A DNA stretch of 64,000 bases from a virus, in the IMG/VR virus record IMGVR_UViG_3300025057_000004, positions 1-64,000 of that record. The stretch is one strand, 5' to 3'. Positions 30,090 through 34,876 of this stretch are shown here, one piece after another. Under the pieces are notes generated by a model. It saw only the letters and a list, made by a program, of their open reading frames with translations. It was not told the DNA's origin and searched no databases. Numbering within the stretch: position 1 is the first letter of the stretch; each line of letters begins with the position of its first letter. Both the position numbers and the translations under genes were made by a program.

Positions 30090-30437
30090 ATGGCAAACCG
30101 CAATAGAAATGCAGGTCATTCGTGGGAGAGAGAGTGCGTAAAGCTGTTATCAGAGTTTTTTCCAGACGTTGTGACATCACGTTCGGAGTCAAGAAGAAGA
30201 GACGACCAGAAGGTTGACCTCTGCTACACTGACTACCTGAATGTACAGTGCAAAACACTGAAAGACCGTGTAGATTATATATCTGTACTTAAGACTATGC
30301 CTGTAGAGGAAGGTCAACTCAATGTGATATTTGAGAAGAAGACCACTAAAAGTCCTAAAGGAAGATTTGTAACACAGGGCAAATATGTACATATGACGCT
30401 GGATGATTTTATTAACTTAATCCGTAAGACATGTTAA
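30090..30437 (+). CDS. Holliday junction resolvase-like PD-(D/E)XK nuclease
   Basis: GHSWERE...VDL...NVQCK. Confidence 0.75.
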   Translation: MANRNRNAGHSWERECVKLLSEFFPDVVTSRSESRRRDDQKVDLCYTDYLNVQCKTLKDRVDYISVLKTMPVEEGQLNVIFEKKTTKSPKGRFVTQGKYVHMTLDDFINLIRKTC

Positions 30438-30784
30438 ATCTATCAATATCATTTGCAATACTGCATACGTTTGTAACGGCAACATGCTATCAAGCAGTTC
30501 CTGAACAATGTGATGCAGATCCGTATGTTACAGCATTCAACTACCGTATTGATCCTAAAGATCCATTATCACACAGGTATGTGGCGATAAGCAGAGATCT
30601 TGAGGCATTCTATTCACCAGGTGATTCCATATATATTGTGGGAGTAGGTGAGTATGACGGTATGTGGATGGTTGCTGACAGAATGAATAGAAGATGGTCT
30701 AACAGGATTGATCTTCTTGTAAATAATGATTCCTATGTTGACAGATTTACGGACGTAAGAATCATAGAACATGTTCGGAAATGA
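30431..30784 (+). CDS. 3D (Asp-Asp-Asp) domain protein, MltA-like peptidoglycan lytic transglycosylase fold
   Basis: VTATCY...QCD...TA...VAISRDL...GDSIYI...VADRM...IDLL; hydrophobic N-terminus. Confidence 0.75.
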   Translation: MLNLSISFAILHTFVTATCYQAVPEQCDADPYVTAFNYRIDPKDPLSHRYVAISRDLEAFYSPGDSIYIVGVGEYDGMWMVADRMNRRWSNRIDLLVNNDSYVDRFTDVRIIEHVRK

Positions 30785-31043
30785 ACTGTCGGAAACGACA
30801 ATCTCCAAAACATGTGAAGTATTGAATCGTGACAGGGAATCCATTGAGAACTGTAATGTTAGCACATTGCGGTTCGAAGTGGAGGAACTGTACGATATCT
30901 CACATGACCACGTACTTTCATCAGCAATGGCAGGAGATGCTATTGAAGCTGAGATAAAGTACAAAAAGAATGTTGATGAGCTGTATTCACTGCTTATGAA
31001 CGATATTGAAGCCCACCTTGATACAGGTGGCATTTTAATCTGA
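30771..31043 (+). CDS. Hypothetical acidic protein
   Basis: 90 aa ORF. Confidence 0.55.
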   Translation: MFGNELSETTISKTCEVLNRDRESIENCNVSTLRFEVEELYDISHDHVLSSAMAGDAIEAEIKYKKNVDELYSLLMNDIEAHLDTGGILI

Positions 31044-31058
31044 CAAAAAACTATAATA

Positions 31059-31493
31059 ATGTCAAGAGCAATCTATATTAAATCAGAAGGTAACGCAAGA
31101 CCAAAGAAAGTAACTGACTTCGAAGGAACTACATTCGGTGAGTTGAAAGCTCACGTAACAGATGTAAACTTTGAGAACGCGAATGTGATCATTCACTCTA
31201 CAAAGACAACATTGTTCGATGATACATCATTGATTCCTGCAGAAGGTGATGTCATCTTGCTTGTGGTACCAAAACAAATGAAAGCAGGTAATGATGAACT
31301 ACAGGTATCTGATACCGATGAGTTCAGCGACCTTATGGAGTGCTACAACGAGCTTGTAGATGCCTCATCTCGTTTTAACGAAGCACTTAAGGCAGTAGGA
31401 GAACTTATTGTAGAGGATGAAGAAAATGTTGAAGTTGGTGGTAGCACTCTTGCTGCTATTAACAGAGCATTCAGAAACTTCTCAGGTAAGTAA
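31059..31493 (+). CDS. Ubiquitin-like (beta-grasp) protein precursor with C-terminal extension
   Basis: Residues 1-77 show a beta-beta-alpha(TFGELK)-beta-beta-beta(ILLVVP) pattern ending KMKAG-type Gly77 (PKQMKAG), then a 67-aa acidic helical tail; upstream of E2, JAB and E1 genes. Confidence 0.65.
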   Translation: MSRAIYIKSEGNARPKKVTDFEGTTFGELKAHVTDVNFENANVIIHSTKTTLFDDTSLIPAEGDVILLVVPKQMKAGNDELQVSDTDEFSDLMECYNELVDASSRFNEALKAVGELIVEDEENVEVGGSTLAAINRAFRNFSGK

Positions 31494-31500
31494 TTGATTA

Positions 31501-31530
31501 GGAGACCCTTCTGAAATACGGAGGGTCTCC
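31501..31530 (+). promoter_or_regulatory. Intercistronic hairpin between Ubl and E2 genes
   Basis: GGAGACCCUU/GAGGGUCUCC 10-bp stem without a strong U-tract. Confidence 0.7.
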
Positions 31531-31550
31531 ATTCATTTAAAACGATAAAT

Positions 31551-32633
31551 ATGCGACCACTTGCGTTTAAAATTAAGGGTGATTTCGGCACAGTATATAT
31601 TACAGAGGGTGGTATCAAAGATGTTGCTCCTGAAGGTGTATTGTACGTAGCTAATATTCATCCTGATGATGACATCATAGACAGAGATAGTTTTAAATAT
31701 CATATTATTTTGAAACATCTTTATGATATATTGGATCATAGATACAAATGTGATGGTGATATAAGTAATATTGATATTGATGTAAGGTATATACATTATT
31801 CTGATGCATATAATATCAATATAAAAATGTATCATGGTGATATTGAGATCATTAATAGTTTGGGTCATAAAGCTTTGATCAAAGAAGTGTATACTAAAAC
31901 GTTTATCATAGCAGATGAAAGAGGTATGAAGTTTCGAGATCTTAATATACTTCGCACTTGTATCAACACCATCGAAGCAGAAAAAAAATTCTGTCATTCT
32001 CATGCTCCTGGTTTATCAACATTTCGACCTAGTTGGAGTTCTATGTGTTTAGGTGATTCTGAATTGTATAAACATTTCTTTAAAAGAAAGAGAAAGCATA
32101 CAGATATGAGCCTTTATTCAGTATATCTTGATACTTATCTTGCTTGGGAGAGTAAAGAAGGTGGACCTTACAGCACTATTGAAAGTGTTTATAATTGTCC
32201 TATTAATGATTCAAGTGTTAATATAAGTATTGACGATGTGAATGTTGATAATCTTATATACAAGTATGCAGATGTGTTTCAAGTAGTTGATTATAACGGT
32301 AAACTTACCGTATCATCTGACTTTATGAATCATATTGAAATAGAAGGTGTACGTAAGACCAATTCATATGGTAATTACTTTGATTTTGACATTTTTAAAA
32401 CAACCACTAGTTATACAGGAGGTAATGATGTTGAATGTTCATCCGCAACATTCAGGGGTGTTCCGTTAAGAATGGCTATAAAGGATATTGACAAAGATGA
32501 ACTGATGTCATATATGCCTACTATTTATAACAGACCGCCAGGAAACCTAATGGATACAATAAAAAATAGAGTTTCTTCAATTATAAATCTTAATTATGAA
32601 AAAAGTAACAGAGAAGAAGTACGAAACGCTTGA
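31551..32633 (+). CDS. Prokaryotic E2 (ubiquitin-conjugating enzyme)-like protein
   Basis: FCHSH-x13-MCLG resembles the E2 HP(N/H)...CL catalytic signature; downstream WESKEGGPY; between Ubl and JAB genes. Confidence 0.65.
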   Translation: MRPLAFKIKGDFGTVYITEGGIKDVAPEGVLYVANIHPDDDIIDRDSFKYHIILKHLYDILDHRYKCDGDISNIDIDVRYIHYSDAYNINIKMYHGDIEIINSLGHKALIKEVYTKTFIIADERGMKFRDLNILRTCINTIEAEKKFCHSHAPGLSTFRPSWSSMCLGDSELYKHFFKRKRKHTDMSLYSVYLDTYLAWESKEGGPYSTIESVYNCPINDSSVNISIDDVNVDNLIYKYADVFQVVDYNGKLTVSSDFMNHIEIEGVRKTNSYGNYFDFDIFKTTTSYTGGNDVECSSATFRGVPLRMAIKDIDKDELMSYMPTIYNRPPGNLMDTIKNRVSSIINLNYEKSNREEVRNA

Positions 32634-33708
32634 GCTGAAAGAAAAAGGTAAGCTCATTATTACAGAAGATGTAAAGAAAAAGATCGATCAGATGCATGAT
32701 CGTGTAGGTAATACTGAATGGTGTGGTTTTATCTTTTATGAAAAAGTTGAAGGTAGCATCAGTGATCCTGAAACATATGTGGCTAAGACTACAGATGTCT
32801 ATATGATGGATATCGGCAGTCATAGTTATACTGAGAGTGATAATCATACTGATGATGTTGTTAGTATGGTAGATCGTATTCCTGCATATATGGAAAACAG
32901 ATATGGTCTGATACATACGCATCATAATATGAGTGCTTTCTTTTCAGGTACTGATATTCAAGAGTTGCACGATAACGTTCATCTATATTCTTATTATCTG
33001 TCACTGATCGTTAATTTCGATGGTAAGTGGTGTGCTAAGATTGCTAAGTTGATAGATGTTGAAAGCAGTTCTTATACCATTACTGAAGAAGATGAGGATG
33101 ATGTAATTGTAAACATTCCATCAAAGAAGGTGATGATCACATTTGATCTTGACATTGAGTTTGAACAGCCTGAAGCTTATGATGATGTAGTTGAATTACG
33201 TATTGCTGAGATCAGAGAACGTAAGAAGAAGGAAGAAGAAGAGAAGAAGAAAAACAAATCTCTTTTCAACAATCCTTATCAGACAAACATGTTCAAAAAC
33301 ACTGATTACTACAGTCACTCAAGTCTTAATGCATACAATAATTGGTATGCTCAATATGATGAATTGGTACAGCAACCTAAAACAGGTTTTACAGAAGATG
33401 ATGAGATAGAGTGGTTCATATCATCTCTTATTTATCTTGATCCTTATGCTGATGAACCATTGCACGATGCATTATCAGATCTTAAGGATCATGAATCAGA
33501 TCCTTATTTCAATGTGTATGTAGATCAATTGAATGACAATGCAGTAAACTATGCTATCGATCATTTTGATATTACTGGGGCATACGAGGGTGTATGCAGT
33601 ACATTAAAAAAGCTGAAGCCTTACTCAGGTAAAGGTGTTGAGAAGCTTAGAGAAGCACTTGAGTTAGCTAAACACGAGTTAAATAAGAATAACGAATACT
33701 CACTATGA
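32596..33708 (+). CDS. JAB/MPN+ metallopeptidase (deubiquitinase-like) with C-terminal extension
   Basis: TEWCGF...GLIHTHHNMSAFFSGTD = E...HxH-x7-S-x2-D JAMM motif. Confidence 0.88.
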   Translation: MKKVTEKKYETLELKEKGKLIITEDVKKKIDQMHDRVGNTEWCGFIFYEKVEGSISDPETYVAKTTDVYMMDIGSHSYTESDNHTDDVVSMVDRIPAYMENRYGLIHTHHNMSAFFSGTDIQELHDNVHLYSYYLSLIVNFDGKWCAKIAKLIDVESSSYTITEEDEDDVIVNIPSKKVMITFDLDIEFEQPEAYDDVVELRIAEIRERKKKEEEEKKKNKSLFNNPYQTNMFKNTDYYSHSSLNAYNNWYAQYDELVQQPKTGFTEDDEIEWFISSLIYLDPYADEPLHDALSDLKDHESDPYFNVYVDQLNDNAVNYAIDHFDITGAYEGVCSTLKKLKPYSGKGVEKLREALELAKHELNKNNEYSL

Positions 33709-34394
33709 TAGAAGTACAACACAAGGATTCTCATACGAGATTCAATAGTGTTGACTGGTTCGGTGATTTCAGAGAGATAACTATCGGTGGTGTCGGCACT
33801 ATCGGTAGTTGGCTTTCTCTGTTATTGGCAAGAACTGGTGAACACGAATTGATCATGTATGATGATGATCAGGTTGAAAGCATCAATCTATCAGGACAAC
33901 TGTTCTCGAAAGATGATGTTGGCAGATCTAAAACGGACAGTGCACGTGATAACATATTCTCATTTACTGAGATATCAGATCAGAAAGTGCATTCGATGAA
34001 TCAGAAACTTACGAGCGAATCGTATGTATCTGCAATCTCATTCTCTTGCTTTGACAATATGAAAGCACGTAAAGAGATGTTCAACAAATGGAAGACCCTT
34101 GAGAACAGAGAGCTTTTCATTGATGGTCGTATGACCATTGAAACATACGAAGTGTATGTTGTAAAGAAAGGAGATGAGAAACGCTACGAGCAGACACTGT
34201 TTGATGATTCACAGGTAGCAGAACAGATATGTTCTTTGAAGAACACATCACATACAGGTGCGCTCATTGCTGCAAGAATGGTAACTTCATTCACAAACCA
34301 TATTGCCAATCAGATAATGGGCATTGATATACGTGAAGTACCATTTCATTTTAGAGAAGATATGCAATTACAGTTAATTACTATGGAATGTTAG
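33705..34394 (+). CDS. ThiF/MoeB/E1-like activating enzyme
   Basis: GGVGTIGS, YDDDQVESINLSGQLF, CFDN, DGRM; single Cys in the crossover loop (EQICSLK). Confidence 0.88.
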   Translation: MIEVQHKDSHTRFNSVDWFGDFREITIGGVGTIGSWLSLLLARTGEHELIMYDDDQVESINLSGQLFSKDDVGRSKTDSARDNIFSFTEISDQKVHSMNQKLTSESYVSAISFSCFDNMKARKEMFNKWKTLENRELFIDGRMTIETYEVYVVKKGDEKRYEQTLFDDSQVAEQICSLKNTSHTGALIAARMVTSFTNHIANQIMGIDIREVPFHFREDMQLQLITMEC

Positions 34395-34876
34395 CAGAAA
34401 TAATAAAACATTATGATGATCCTTATAAAATTGATCTTTATGATTTTAGACGTTTATATCTTTCTAATGAAAAACAGTCTTTTAAAAGATTGTCTCCTAT
34501 AGTACATAATACACTTGTACCTGTTATTTATGCTATTACAGGTACCAATAAAATAAATGATCGTCAGGTAAATGGTATATACGAAAGTATATATGATTCT
34601 AATCGAGGCTTTTATGTAAATGCTGTTGCGTGTATAGATCATAGAGAAGTAAAGAAAGTGCGTGAGAATTTTATTCATGCATTACTTAACCACCACGATT
34701 TTATGAAAGTGACAAATATCACGTTTGTTCTTGAAAATGATAACGCTGAAGTAGCTATTCCAAGTGATTTTATAGCTAAGAAAGAAATGCTTGCTGATGT
34801 ACAGAACAATCTGTCAACTATGATCAAGCAGTCTATTGAGAAAGATAATGAATTAGGTTTAATGATAGTAGAATAA
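34388..34876 (+). CDS. Hypothetical protein overlapping the E1 gene end
   Basis: 162 aa; AT-rich 5' half. Confidence 0.6.
   Translation: MLAEIIKHYDDPYKIDLYDFRRLYLSNEKQSFKRLSPIVHNTLVPVIYAITGTNKINDRQVNGIYESIYDSNRGFYVNAVACIDHREVKKVRENFIHALLNHHDFMKVTNITFVLENDNAEVAIPSDFIAKKEMLADVQNNLSTMIKQSIEKDNELGLMIVE

Follow-up and report, generated by a model that had tools for sequence, protein, structure and literature searches.

The 144-residue protein encoded by the ORF at 31059-31493 (+ strand) of the window, the whole 64,000-nt stretch of phage DNA analysed here, is in the account that we favour with reasonable though not firm confidence the pro-form of a phage ubiquitin-like (Ubl) modifier, which would be cut by a JAB peptidase and conjugated, with the hairpin behind its gene acting as an attenuator. 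Directly observed are the anatomy of the gene, its modular tail, and the conservation of the glycine, the cassette and the hairpin. The marine crAss-like phage probably runs a protein-tagging pathway of its own, because its tag carries an exchangeable tail and its enzyme genes are set apart from the tag gene by a conserved hairpin. In this pathway, whose cleavage, thioester cascade, conjugation and attenuation we infer, the co-encoded JAMM peptidase would cut after Gly77 and release a 77-residue β-grasp tag, ending in a reactive glycine, along with an independent acidic protein of 67 residues. The minimal E1 (Cys176) would then adenylate Gly77, and the tag would move to Cys166 of the 360-residue E2-like protein and further to lysines of phage or host targets.

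The Ubl-like N-domain (residues 1-77; 31059-31289, + strand) ends in P71-K-Q-M-K75-A-G77, residues 66-77 being ILLVVPKQMKAG. The codon of Gly77, the proposed site of processing and activation, is GGT at 31287-31289 (+), and the acidic tail with its stop codon occupies 31290-31493 (+). The original prediction had the Ubl domain closing at Gly77 with an acidic tail after it, and reading of the ORF confirms this division into 77 and 67 residues; the tail (78-144) contains 16 D/E and 5 K/R and no Pro. The drop in conservation past KxG77 that was offered as a check is also found: in the alignment of 20 close homologues (A1) 30/77 columns are invariant up to Gly77 vs 3/67 beyond it, and Gly77 itself is kept in 20/20. 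Among distant representatives the glycine is present in 145/150 and offset by one column in two more, and it is the sole invariant column across 21 short forms. The ending pattern P-x-x-M-K-A-G77 of the window protein recurs in part, with Lys at -2 in 137 and Pro at -6 in 126 of the 150 representatives, and the residue right after the glycine is Pro in 0/144. A profile of the N-domain matches 498 representative proteins (E≤1e-3), N-terminally in every case. Just ahead of the start of the gene, at 31052-31057, lies a TATAAT.

The N-domain is predicted to adopt the β-grasp fold, and this prediction is drawn from ESM Atlas neighbours only. The Atlas model of the whole 144-aa protein is of low confidence (pTM 0.39, pLDDT 0.64); it compares with DWNN at TM 0.62 (by query), with the MoaD/ThiS cluster at TM 0.57-0.60 and with viral clusters at TM 0.75-0.83, and its named feature neighbours are TmoB, ThiS and YukD, all below 0.9. 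The Ubl protein has no match in Pfam, and Pfam ThiS (PF02597) is found neither with this protein at E≤1, nor among the 13 families matched by the 20 homologues at E≤10, nor anywhere in the 88.9-kb phage record at E≤10. Nothing relevant to the Ubl fold came from the Pfam scan of the 20 homologues, and nothing relevant to the protein from PHROGs, PADLOC or NCBIfam; searched against phages, the 144-aa protein (tblastn) and the cassette (blastn) likewise gave nothing relevant. A PDB profile search with the Ubl protein returned coiled-coil noise on the tail and nothing else, and Pfam DWNN is touched by 1/144 relatives only (E 0.0034).

Downstream of the modifier gene, on the same strand, follow the genes of the E2-like candidate (31551-32633, 360 aa), of a JAB/JAMM metallopeptidase (32596-33708, 370 aa), which overlaps the E2-like gene by 38 nt, and of a minimal E1 consisting of a ThiF-type adenylation domain (33705-34394, 229 aa), which shares 4 nt with the JAB gene. 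Of 34 records, 27 preserve the order Ubl, E2-like, JAB, E1, and 6 of the remaining 7 are truncated at contig ends. The cassette is also present in crAss001 (gp79-gp76) and FpV4, and its neighbourhood consists of nucleotide-metabolism and replication genes.

Between the modifier and the E2-like gene a GC-rich, terminator-like hairpin with a weak T tract is located at 31501-31530 (+), separated from the E2-like start by a spacer of 20 nt (31531-31550, +). A hairpin of 10 bp had been predicted at this place; the hairpin is real, and the count is amended to 11 pairs (7 G-C, one U.G) closing an 8-nt loop, namely 9 Watson-Crick pairs in an unbroken row, with U.G and C-G in addition. Its 81-nt context folds at -23.4 kcal/mol (z = -3.8, 0/200 shuffles as stable). 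For the hairpin alone the values are -19.8 kcal/mol (+ strand) and -16.7 kcal/mol (- strand), and the sense-strand hairpin is the more stable one in 16/18 loci. From ~24 kb to 38.9 kb, the + strand of the window has no other intergenic hairpin as strong. A GC-rich hairpin occupies the Ubl/E2-like gap at 19/22 loci, the other 3/22 being below threshold, and hairpin density reaches 6.8 per kb in the gap vs 0.21 per kb elsewhere, ~32 times the background. The stem sequences vary from lineage to lineage. The tract downstream of the hairpin in the window, ATTCATTT, has 5 T in 8 and is interrupted, hence weak, as are the T tracts behind the stems of L001-L004; runs of 6-9 T follow the hairpin in L005, L007, FpV4 and crAss001, and in the last two the hairpin is, by its sequence, a canonical terminator.

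On the sense RNA the hairpin at 31501-31530 may serve as a partial terminator or a 3′ stabiliser, and the message for the E2-like protein, JAB and E1 would then arise mostly by read-through. Either role would therefore leave the modifier-plus-tail message in excess of that of the three enzymes. This role in setting stoichiometry, which the original prediction had assigned to the hairpin, gains partial, comparative support from the position conserved at 19/22 loci and from the closeness of the hairpin to the E2-like start at most loci. A metatranscriptome run (X1) contributes a 1640-nt Logan contig on 29846-31485 which ends there without a loose end, and the run covers nothing in 31486-32706; being assembled contigs only, from one study, these data give no evidence for termination. 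A reading that we rate as rather unlikely, yet the best placed of the alternatives, takes the hairpin as an ordinary full terminator, or a processing or stability element, at an operon boundary, where it would separate two units with no tuning of read-through. The enzyme genes would have, at the same rather low likelihood, a promoter or timing class of their own. The canonical stems with T6-T9 runs in crAss001, FpV4, L005 and L007 agree with such a boundary, and so does a preprint (10.64898/2026.08.19.745784) reporting that promoters and terminators widely overlap in bacteria; the TATAAT ahead of the Ubl start makes local promoters conceivable. However, the distance from the hairpin to the E2-like start is 7-46 nt in 20/22 loci (60 nt in L026 and 78 nt in L027) and 20 nt in the window, a gap so short that it leaves little space for a separate promoter and leader, and the weak T tracts of the window and L001-L004 fit leaky termination.

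The tail behaves as a module. Mean pairwise identity is 51% in the tail vs 84% in the N-domain, and dN/dS against L001 is ~0.19 for the tail and ~0.06 for the N-domain. In three relatives (P0040-P0042) the tail is just 24-26% identical behind an N-domain of 94-96% identity, and the RNA contig of a relative departs from the window sequence immediately past 31289; tails have thus been swapped precisely at the Gly boundary. The length of the post-Gly part is bimodal (n=150), with 0-8 residues in 22/150, 9-19 residues in none and at least 20 residues in 128/150, and in most members the masked part comprises 67-206 residues. Seven G+1 forms (L010, L011, L023, L025, L026, L027 and L028) reside in the same Ubl, E2-like, JAB, E1 cassette, a context that was obtained from a scan with a three-member alignment (A9); single-protein scans of viral contigs with the short forms P0126 and P0095 detected no relative. 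The ~50-aa ORFs found behind short-form Ubls were considered as split-off tails, but no homology came to light: phmmer gave 0 matches (E≤10) against 152 tails, tail HMMs gave ≤6.5 bits and hhalign a probability of 0.4%. Agreement of these ORFs with the tails extends to position, size and charge only.

Two further proposals of the original prediction are partly borne out by these comparisons. Cleavage after Gly77 is made plausible by the conservation of the glycine, the short forms, the lack of Pro behind it and the JAMM residues of the peptidase, and a separate role of the tail by the dN/dS values and the exchange at the Gly boundary. A permanently fused protein is nevertheless conceivable because every one of the 20 closest homologues carries a tail of at least 67 residues. 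According to this view, which we regard as improbable, the protein is never cut, its N-terminal β-grasp is a fixed interaction domain of the UBX, DWNN or Rad23 type, coupled to a tail that binds DNA or is helical, and the enzymes have some other substrate. Besides the tail kept by all close homologues, it can draw on DWNN, the best structural neighbour and mostly an uncleaved N-terminal domain, and on the SAP-like motif that directly follows the glycine in many long forms (Pfam SAP matched by 13/144 relatives, best E 6.9e-6) and points to an adaptor associated with DNA in the replication module. An uncleaved Ubl, however, would have no reason for an invariant terminal Gly and a Lys at -2, and the tails swap exactly at that glycine. 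Forms from G+0 to G+8 exist, the G+1 forms within the same cassette, and the cassette offers no other candidate substrate for the E1, an enzyme that requires a substrate with a free C-terminus.

Among the enzymes the E1 is the most readily recognized, matching Pfam ThiF at 3.8e-18 (66 bits, cut-off 28.1). Invariant in 7/7 E1 sequences are G29xG31 of the GxGxxS loop, R43, D53, D55, N61, Q65 and K76 as well as D117-N118, R122, D140 and C176. Among solved chains the closest are MccB, UBA5, PaaA and ThiF (~2e-12 to 1e-10), and in NCBIfam the best matches are ThiF models, with all scores far under the equivalog cut-offs. The JAB protein matches Pfam Prok-JAB at E 1.1e-4 with 22.5 bits, under the cut-off of 25, and phrog_5556 (tail protein) weakly (E 0.0071). 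It carries the JAMM motif E...HxH-x7-S-xx-D, whose residues E41, H107, H109, S117 and D120 show no variation across 19/19 sequences or across a set of seven (7/7). The E2-like protein is distinguished by a conserved HxH...C...WES.EGGPY motif, with H149, H151, C166, G168, S201, G204, P206 and Y207 invariant in seven sequences including those of FpV4 and crAss001. Its sole family match is phrog_15310, of function unknown; no similarity to UBC or Prok-E2 families was detectable in Pfam, PADLOC or NCBIfam, a PDB profile search gave 0 chains at E≤10, the ESM Atlas no feature match, and Pfam on seven members unrelated singletons only. We treat it as a candidate E2, an assignment made solely from the invariant HxH...C motif.

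The same enzymes would be read differently if the glycine were exposed and adenylated for a sulfur-carrier pathway of the ThiS/MoaD/CysO type, or for one of the MccB/PaaA type, leading to a modified nucleotide, a cofactor or a peptide. We see a poor prospect for this, and an equally poor one for the 360-residue Cys protein as a transferase instead of an E2. The solved structures closest to the E1 (MccB, UBA5, PaaA, ThiF and MoeB) and its best NCBIfam match to ThiF, the poor fit of the E2-like protein to any E2 family, and the position of the cassette amid nucleotide-metabolism and replication genes would suit such a pathway, but the terminus is K-[AS]-G and not the GG in which sulfur carriers usually end, Pfam ThiS finds no match, no rhodanese, cysteine desulfurase or PP-loop gene was noticed in the ORF lists of the cassettes, and every E1 score lies far under the equivalog cut-offs.

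As a putative conjugation cassette the locus is kin, as a variant, to the Bil-like Ubl systems and to TAPI/TAPK of phage lambda. With Bil (BilABCD) it shares four parts, a JAB deubiquitinase and an E1 as well as a putative Ubl and a candidate E2. In the study concerned, BilC pre-processes BilA to expose the glycine, and BilA of E. aridi is cut between Gly97 and Ala98 (10.1101/2023.09.26.559546). Unlike Bil, which is encoded in host defence islands and masks its glycine by 1 residue, the window cassette belongs to a lytic-type phage, the masked part comprises 67-206 residues in most of its members, the 229-residue E1 is a minimal domain and the E2-like protein has no sequence relationship to its Bil counterpart. 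In PADLOC neither the Ubl nor the E2-like protein has a match, the match of the JAB protein is to a generic JAB model (0.0026), and BilD matches the E1 weakly (1.4e-4), less well than 20 of the Cap2-type E1-E2 models do, which places the cassette outside Bil. TAPI and TAPK of lambda/T1 resemble it in having a phage Ubl with a conserved terminal Gly and a C-terminal fusion domain next to a JAB gene, and Iyer, Burroughs and Aravind 2006 (PMC1779556) predict that JAB frees the Ubl fusion at the terminal Gly. TAPI lacks E1 and E2 and is found in tail modules, whereas the window cassette, located in a replication module, includes both an E1 and an E2-like protein.

In the eukaryotic precursors UBA52, RPS27A, SUMO, NEDD8, UFM1 and Atg8 residues past the reactive glycine, either short caps or whole proteins, are translated and then removed by a peptidase. 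The phage modifier likewise has residues past this glycine, its bimodal post-Gly length resembles the Ubl caps, and UBA5 is among the nearest solved relatives of the phage E1, but the phage tails are hypervariable and recombine at the glycine, and the peptidase is a JAMM enzyme encoded in one operon with the modifier. On mobile elements, namely plasmids and ICEs, PRTRC cassettes (TIGR03735-TIGR03738) also bring a Ubl, an E2-like protein, a JAB and a ThiF-family protein together. The window cassette falls outside them, with 15.1 bits for PRTRC_A against a cut-off of 101.8 and 34.4 for PRTRC_ThiF against 144.75 (TIGR03735/TIGR03736), and neither the Ubl nor the E2-like protein is matched by an NCBIfam PRTRC model.

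Public labels of the cassette genes read 'hypothetical', 'thiamine biosynthesis protein' and 'metalloprotease domain', and their PHROG families are of function unknown. A literature search on crAss-like phages, ubiquitin-like, ThiF and JAMM found no description of the cassette. A UBA5-like family of gut-phage proteins is mentioned in passing in 10.64898/2026.03.05.709809, and a text search of the crAss001 RNA-seq preprint (10.1101/2024.11.17.624012) found gp76, gp78, gp79 and ThiF unmentioned. The precursor architecture is a testable handle with a defined scissile bond. Because of the Lys at -2 from the Gly, digestion with trypsin would leave modified lysines marked by Ala-Gly in phages of the window type and by Ser-Gly in those of the crAss001 type, and culturable models are at hand in crAss001 of Bacteroides intestinalis and FpV4 of Flavobacterium psychrophilum.

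To our knowledge, prokaryotic Ubl conjugation has so far been known as a host anti-phage defence (Bil, Bub, CBASS Cap2). If the pathway proposed here is true, a full tagging kit is owned by viruses, in a clade with some of the most abundant gut phages, and the swappable tails and conserved terminator-like hairpin suggest a regulated, stoichiometric co-delivery of a second protein with the tag. A broader and more tentative reading, to which we give somewhat less than even credence, extends this to Crassvirales and related Bacteroidota phages, crAss001 and FpV4 included, which would possess their own Ubl conjugation with the modifier fused to interchangeable cargo (SAP-type DNA binders, acidic helices or lysine-rich tails) and followed by a leaky terminator. 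If this were true, the system would be a viral counterpart to the eukaryotic ubiquitin-fusion genes, in which a single JAMM cut arms the tag and frees the cargo 1:1 and the conserved leaky terminator holds both tag and cargo above the level of the enzymes.

The cassette lies on the + strand in a dense replication block with SNF2-type helicase, DnaB-like helicase, primase, exonuclease and uracil-DNA glycosylase, in a linear IMG/VR virus record of 88.9 kb (CheckV completeness 88), 64 kb of which form the window. Its first gene (31059-31493, +, by ORF reading) encodes the ubiquitin-like (Ubl) protein of 144 amino acids and is followed at its 3′ end by a gap of 57 nt. Three overlapping + strand genes come next, encoding the E2-like candidate (360 amino acids, 31551-32633), the JAB peptidase (370 amino acids, 32596-33708) and the E1 (229 amino acids, 33705-34394). 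A PHROGs search with the cassette proteins matched families of unknown function only. An ORF of 162 amino acids (34388-34876) shares 7 nt with the 3′ end of the E1 gene and was matched by no family in Pfam, PHROGs, PADLOC or NCBIfam. The related loci L001-L006 have ORFs of 119-154 amino acids at the equivalent position, and in the window's subgroup this ORF is a possible fifth member of the cassette. Upstream of the Ubl gene, a small terminator-like hairpin of 6 pairs (31013-31030) stands at the end of a 90-aa gene, and a perfect TATAAT (31052-31057) precedes the Ubl start codon by one base; the Ubl gene might form its own transcription unit. In a relative from the metatranscriptome run X5, 533 nt at window positions 30427-30961 are exchanged for 228 other letters, which takes out a gene of 117 amino acids and a portion of the 90-aa gene, both upstream of Ubl.

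The original prediction placed the mature end of the modifier at the internal Gly77 and expected conservation to fall beyond it. A word-indexed search with the Ubl protein found 45 homologues (30 of exactly 144 amino acids), and an alignment of 20 bore out the expected fall: Gly77 is invariant, as are 30 of the 77 columns before it versus 3 of the 67 after it, mean pairwise identity drops from 84% to 51%, and in homologues of 189-212 amino acids the additional residues sit directly after Gly77. When crAss001 gp79 and the 289-aa protein of the cultured phage FpV4 were added, ten invariant columns were left, every one in the N-terminal domain (residues 1-77), P71, K75 and G77 included. A profile of this domain was run over 1.84 billion representative proteins and matched 498 of them (E ≤ 1e-3), each at its N-terminus. 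Of the best 150 among these 498, 145 have Gly in the Gly column and two more have it one column later; Lys occupies -2 in 137, 126 have Pro at -6, and Pro directly follows Gly in 0 of 144. The number of residues after Gly in these 150 is bimodal: none in one protein, 1 in seven, 2-3 in eight, 4-8 in six, 9-19 in none and 20 or more in 128. Gly is the sole invariant column among 21 short forms. Read from the sequences, these lengths and this invariance constitute a Ubl-precursor pattern, with small caps beside a majority of long fusions.

Two IMG/VR scans gave 31 loci, on which HMMs built from our own alignments were run; with FpV4, crAss001 and the window, 34 records were scored. The order Ubl, E2-like, JAB, E1 was found by HMM scan in 27 of the 34, and six stop less than 1 kb past the Ubl gene. 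The remaining locus, L027, has Ubl, E2-like and a split JAB, and E1 was not seen there by the same scan. About 1.15 kb separates the two parts of this JAB gene (L027:7282-9717), and at L012:7725-8974 and L013:6991-8240 the E1 HMM matches two ORFs with about 540 nt between them. An intron, an intein, a homing endonuclease or another inserted element may explain both kinds of split. In seven loci (L010, L011, L023, L025, L026, L027 and L028) the Ubl ends one residue past K-S-G, and therefore the cassette enzymes would work there with a modifier having a nearly free Gly; for this reason, the long forms likely need cutting at the same Gly.

The tail of the window protein is acidic, as originally described (16 D/E vs 5 K/R). 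Its dN/dS against L001 is about 0.19 vs about 0.06 for the N-terminal domain, with dS close to saturation, which points to purifying selection weaker than that on the domain. Three homologues (P0040-P0042) share 94-96% identity with the window protein in the domain and only 24-26% in the tail, and the metatranscriptome contig of such a relative matches the window as far as 31289, the final base of the Gly77 codon, past which it is unlike the window and begins a long-form tail. By these divergences, tails are swapped as modules with the boundary exactly at Gly. The first module after Gly in long forms looks like a SAP/HeH DNA-binding motif, e.g. L003:5232-5633 and L009:2565-2972 (crAss001 gp79 tail); Pfam SAP is matched by 13 of 144 family members (best E 6.9e-6), SAP_new25 by three and Rho_N by one, and the 144-aa subgroup of the window is without this module. 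Six of the seven loci with one residue after Gly have a separate ORF of 46-63 amino acids after the Ubl gene, five of them of 46-51 amino acids (L010:5277-5423, L011:5238-5387, L023:1530-1682, L026:4994-5137 and L028:5234-5371). In L023, L026 and L028 the start codon of this ORF (ATG) overlaps the stop codon of Ubl, and four of these ORFs share the motif K-[KE]-[IY]-D-x-[YFL]-F. Homology between them and the fused tails was not detectable by phmmer, tail HMMs or hhalign.

Pfam gave nothing relevant for the Ubl or the 360-aa protein. For the exact 144-aa sequence the ESM Atlas has a model of modest quality (pTM 0.39), in which residues 1-77 align with viral clusters (TM 0.75-0.83), DWNN (0.62) and a MoaD/ThiS cluster (0.57-0.60); the closest named feature neighbours are TmoB, ThiS and YukD, with all scores under the tool's 0.9 line. 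DWNN, MoaD/ThiS, TmoB and YukD are beta-grasp families, and a beta-grasp N-terminal domain is a lead that fits the terminal Gly and the alternation of strands and helices.

The JAB matches Pfam Prok-JAB weakly (1.1e-4; 22.5 bits, under the cut-off of 25), and E41, H107, H109, S117 and D120 are invariant in 19/19 sequences. The E1 matches ThiF over the cut-off (3.8e-18), and its nucleotide-binding residues and Cys176 are invariant in 7/7 sequences; the closest solved structures are MccB, UBA5, PaaA and ThiF, and in PADLOC it is matched by Cap2-type E1-E2 models and weakly by BilD. Compared with the E1 of the window, FpV4 and the IMG/VR relatives, that of crAss001 (gp76, L009:5554-6705) is longer by about 150 residues at the N-terminus. 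In the 360-aa protein, H149, H151, C166, G168 and the motif S201...G204-x-P206-Y207 (consensus WES.EGGPY) are kept in 7/7; Pfam, NCBIfam, PDB profile and ESM Atlas searches gave no match to an E2 family, a PDB chain or an Atlas cluster, and E2 is a putative label, assigned by reasoning.

The hairpin between the Ubl and E2-like genes (31501-31530) proved real and exceptional for its region. After exclusion of seven near-duplicates and five truncated loci, 22 non-redundant loci having the E2-like gene were searched for at least 9 uninterrupted pairs with at least 4 G-C, from the end of the modifier gene, or of the small ORF where there is one, up to the E2-like start. Nineteen of the 22 reach this threshold, at a density of 6.8 per kb in the gap vs 0.21 per kb over the rest of that strand; below it, with weaker or bulged stems, are FpV4 (14 pairs with 3 G-C), crAss001 (about 15 pairs, with a bulge) and L018 (7 pairs). 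The position is kept across lineages while stem sequences vary, the sense-strand fold is more stable in 16 of 18 loci (mean difference 3.5 kcal/mol), and in 20/22 loci 7-46 nt separate its end from the E2-like start (20 nt in the window). By these results the hairpin is a conserved cassette part; it divides the catalytic components from the predicted stoichiometric ones (tag, tail or small ORF). In loci with one residue after Gly it stands after the small ORF. T6-T9 runs occur in L005, L007, FpV4 and crAss001. The simplest reading of the hairpin would be a leaky terminator with read-through; less simply, it may stop transcription fully and overlap a promoter.

BilA has been shown to be pre-processed by BilC, the JAB of its own operon, with one residue removed (10.1101/2023.09.26.559546), and for lambda TAPI/TAPK it was predicted in 2006 that a JAB frees the phage Ubl from the C-terminal domain fused to it (PMC1779556). 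The cassette would work like the Bil, PRTRC and ThiS systems, but PADLOC models, NCBIfam and Pfam, respectively, did not place it in these families. In the literature searched, the cassette was not described save for a passing mention of a UBA5-like phage protein family (10.64898/2026.03.05.709809).

The observation of a Ubl precursor followed by a hairpin is thus confirmed, and the proposed interpretation is well supported by comparison. New here are the bimodal cap and tail lengths, the exact recombination boundary at Gly, the SAP-like module in long tails and a terminator-like hairpin conserved family-wide.
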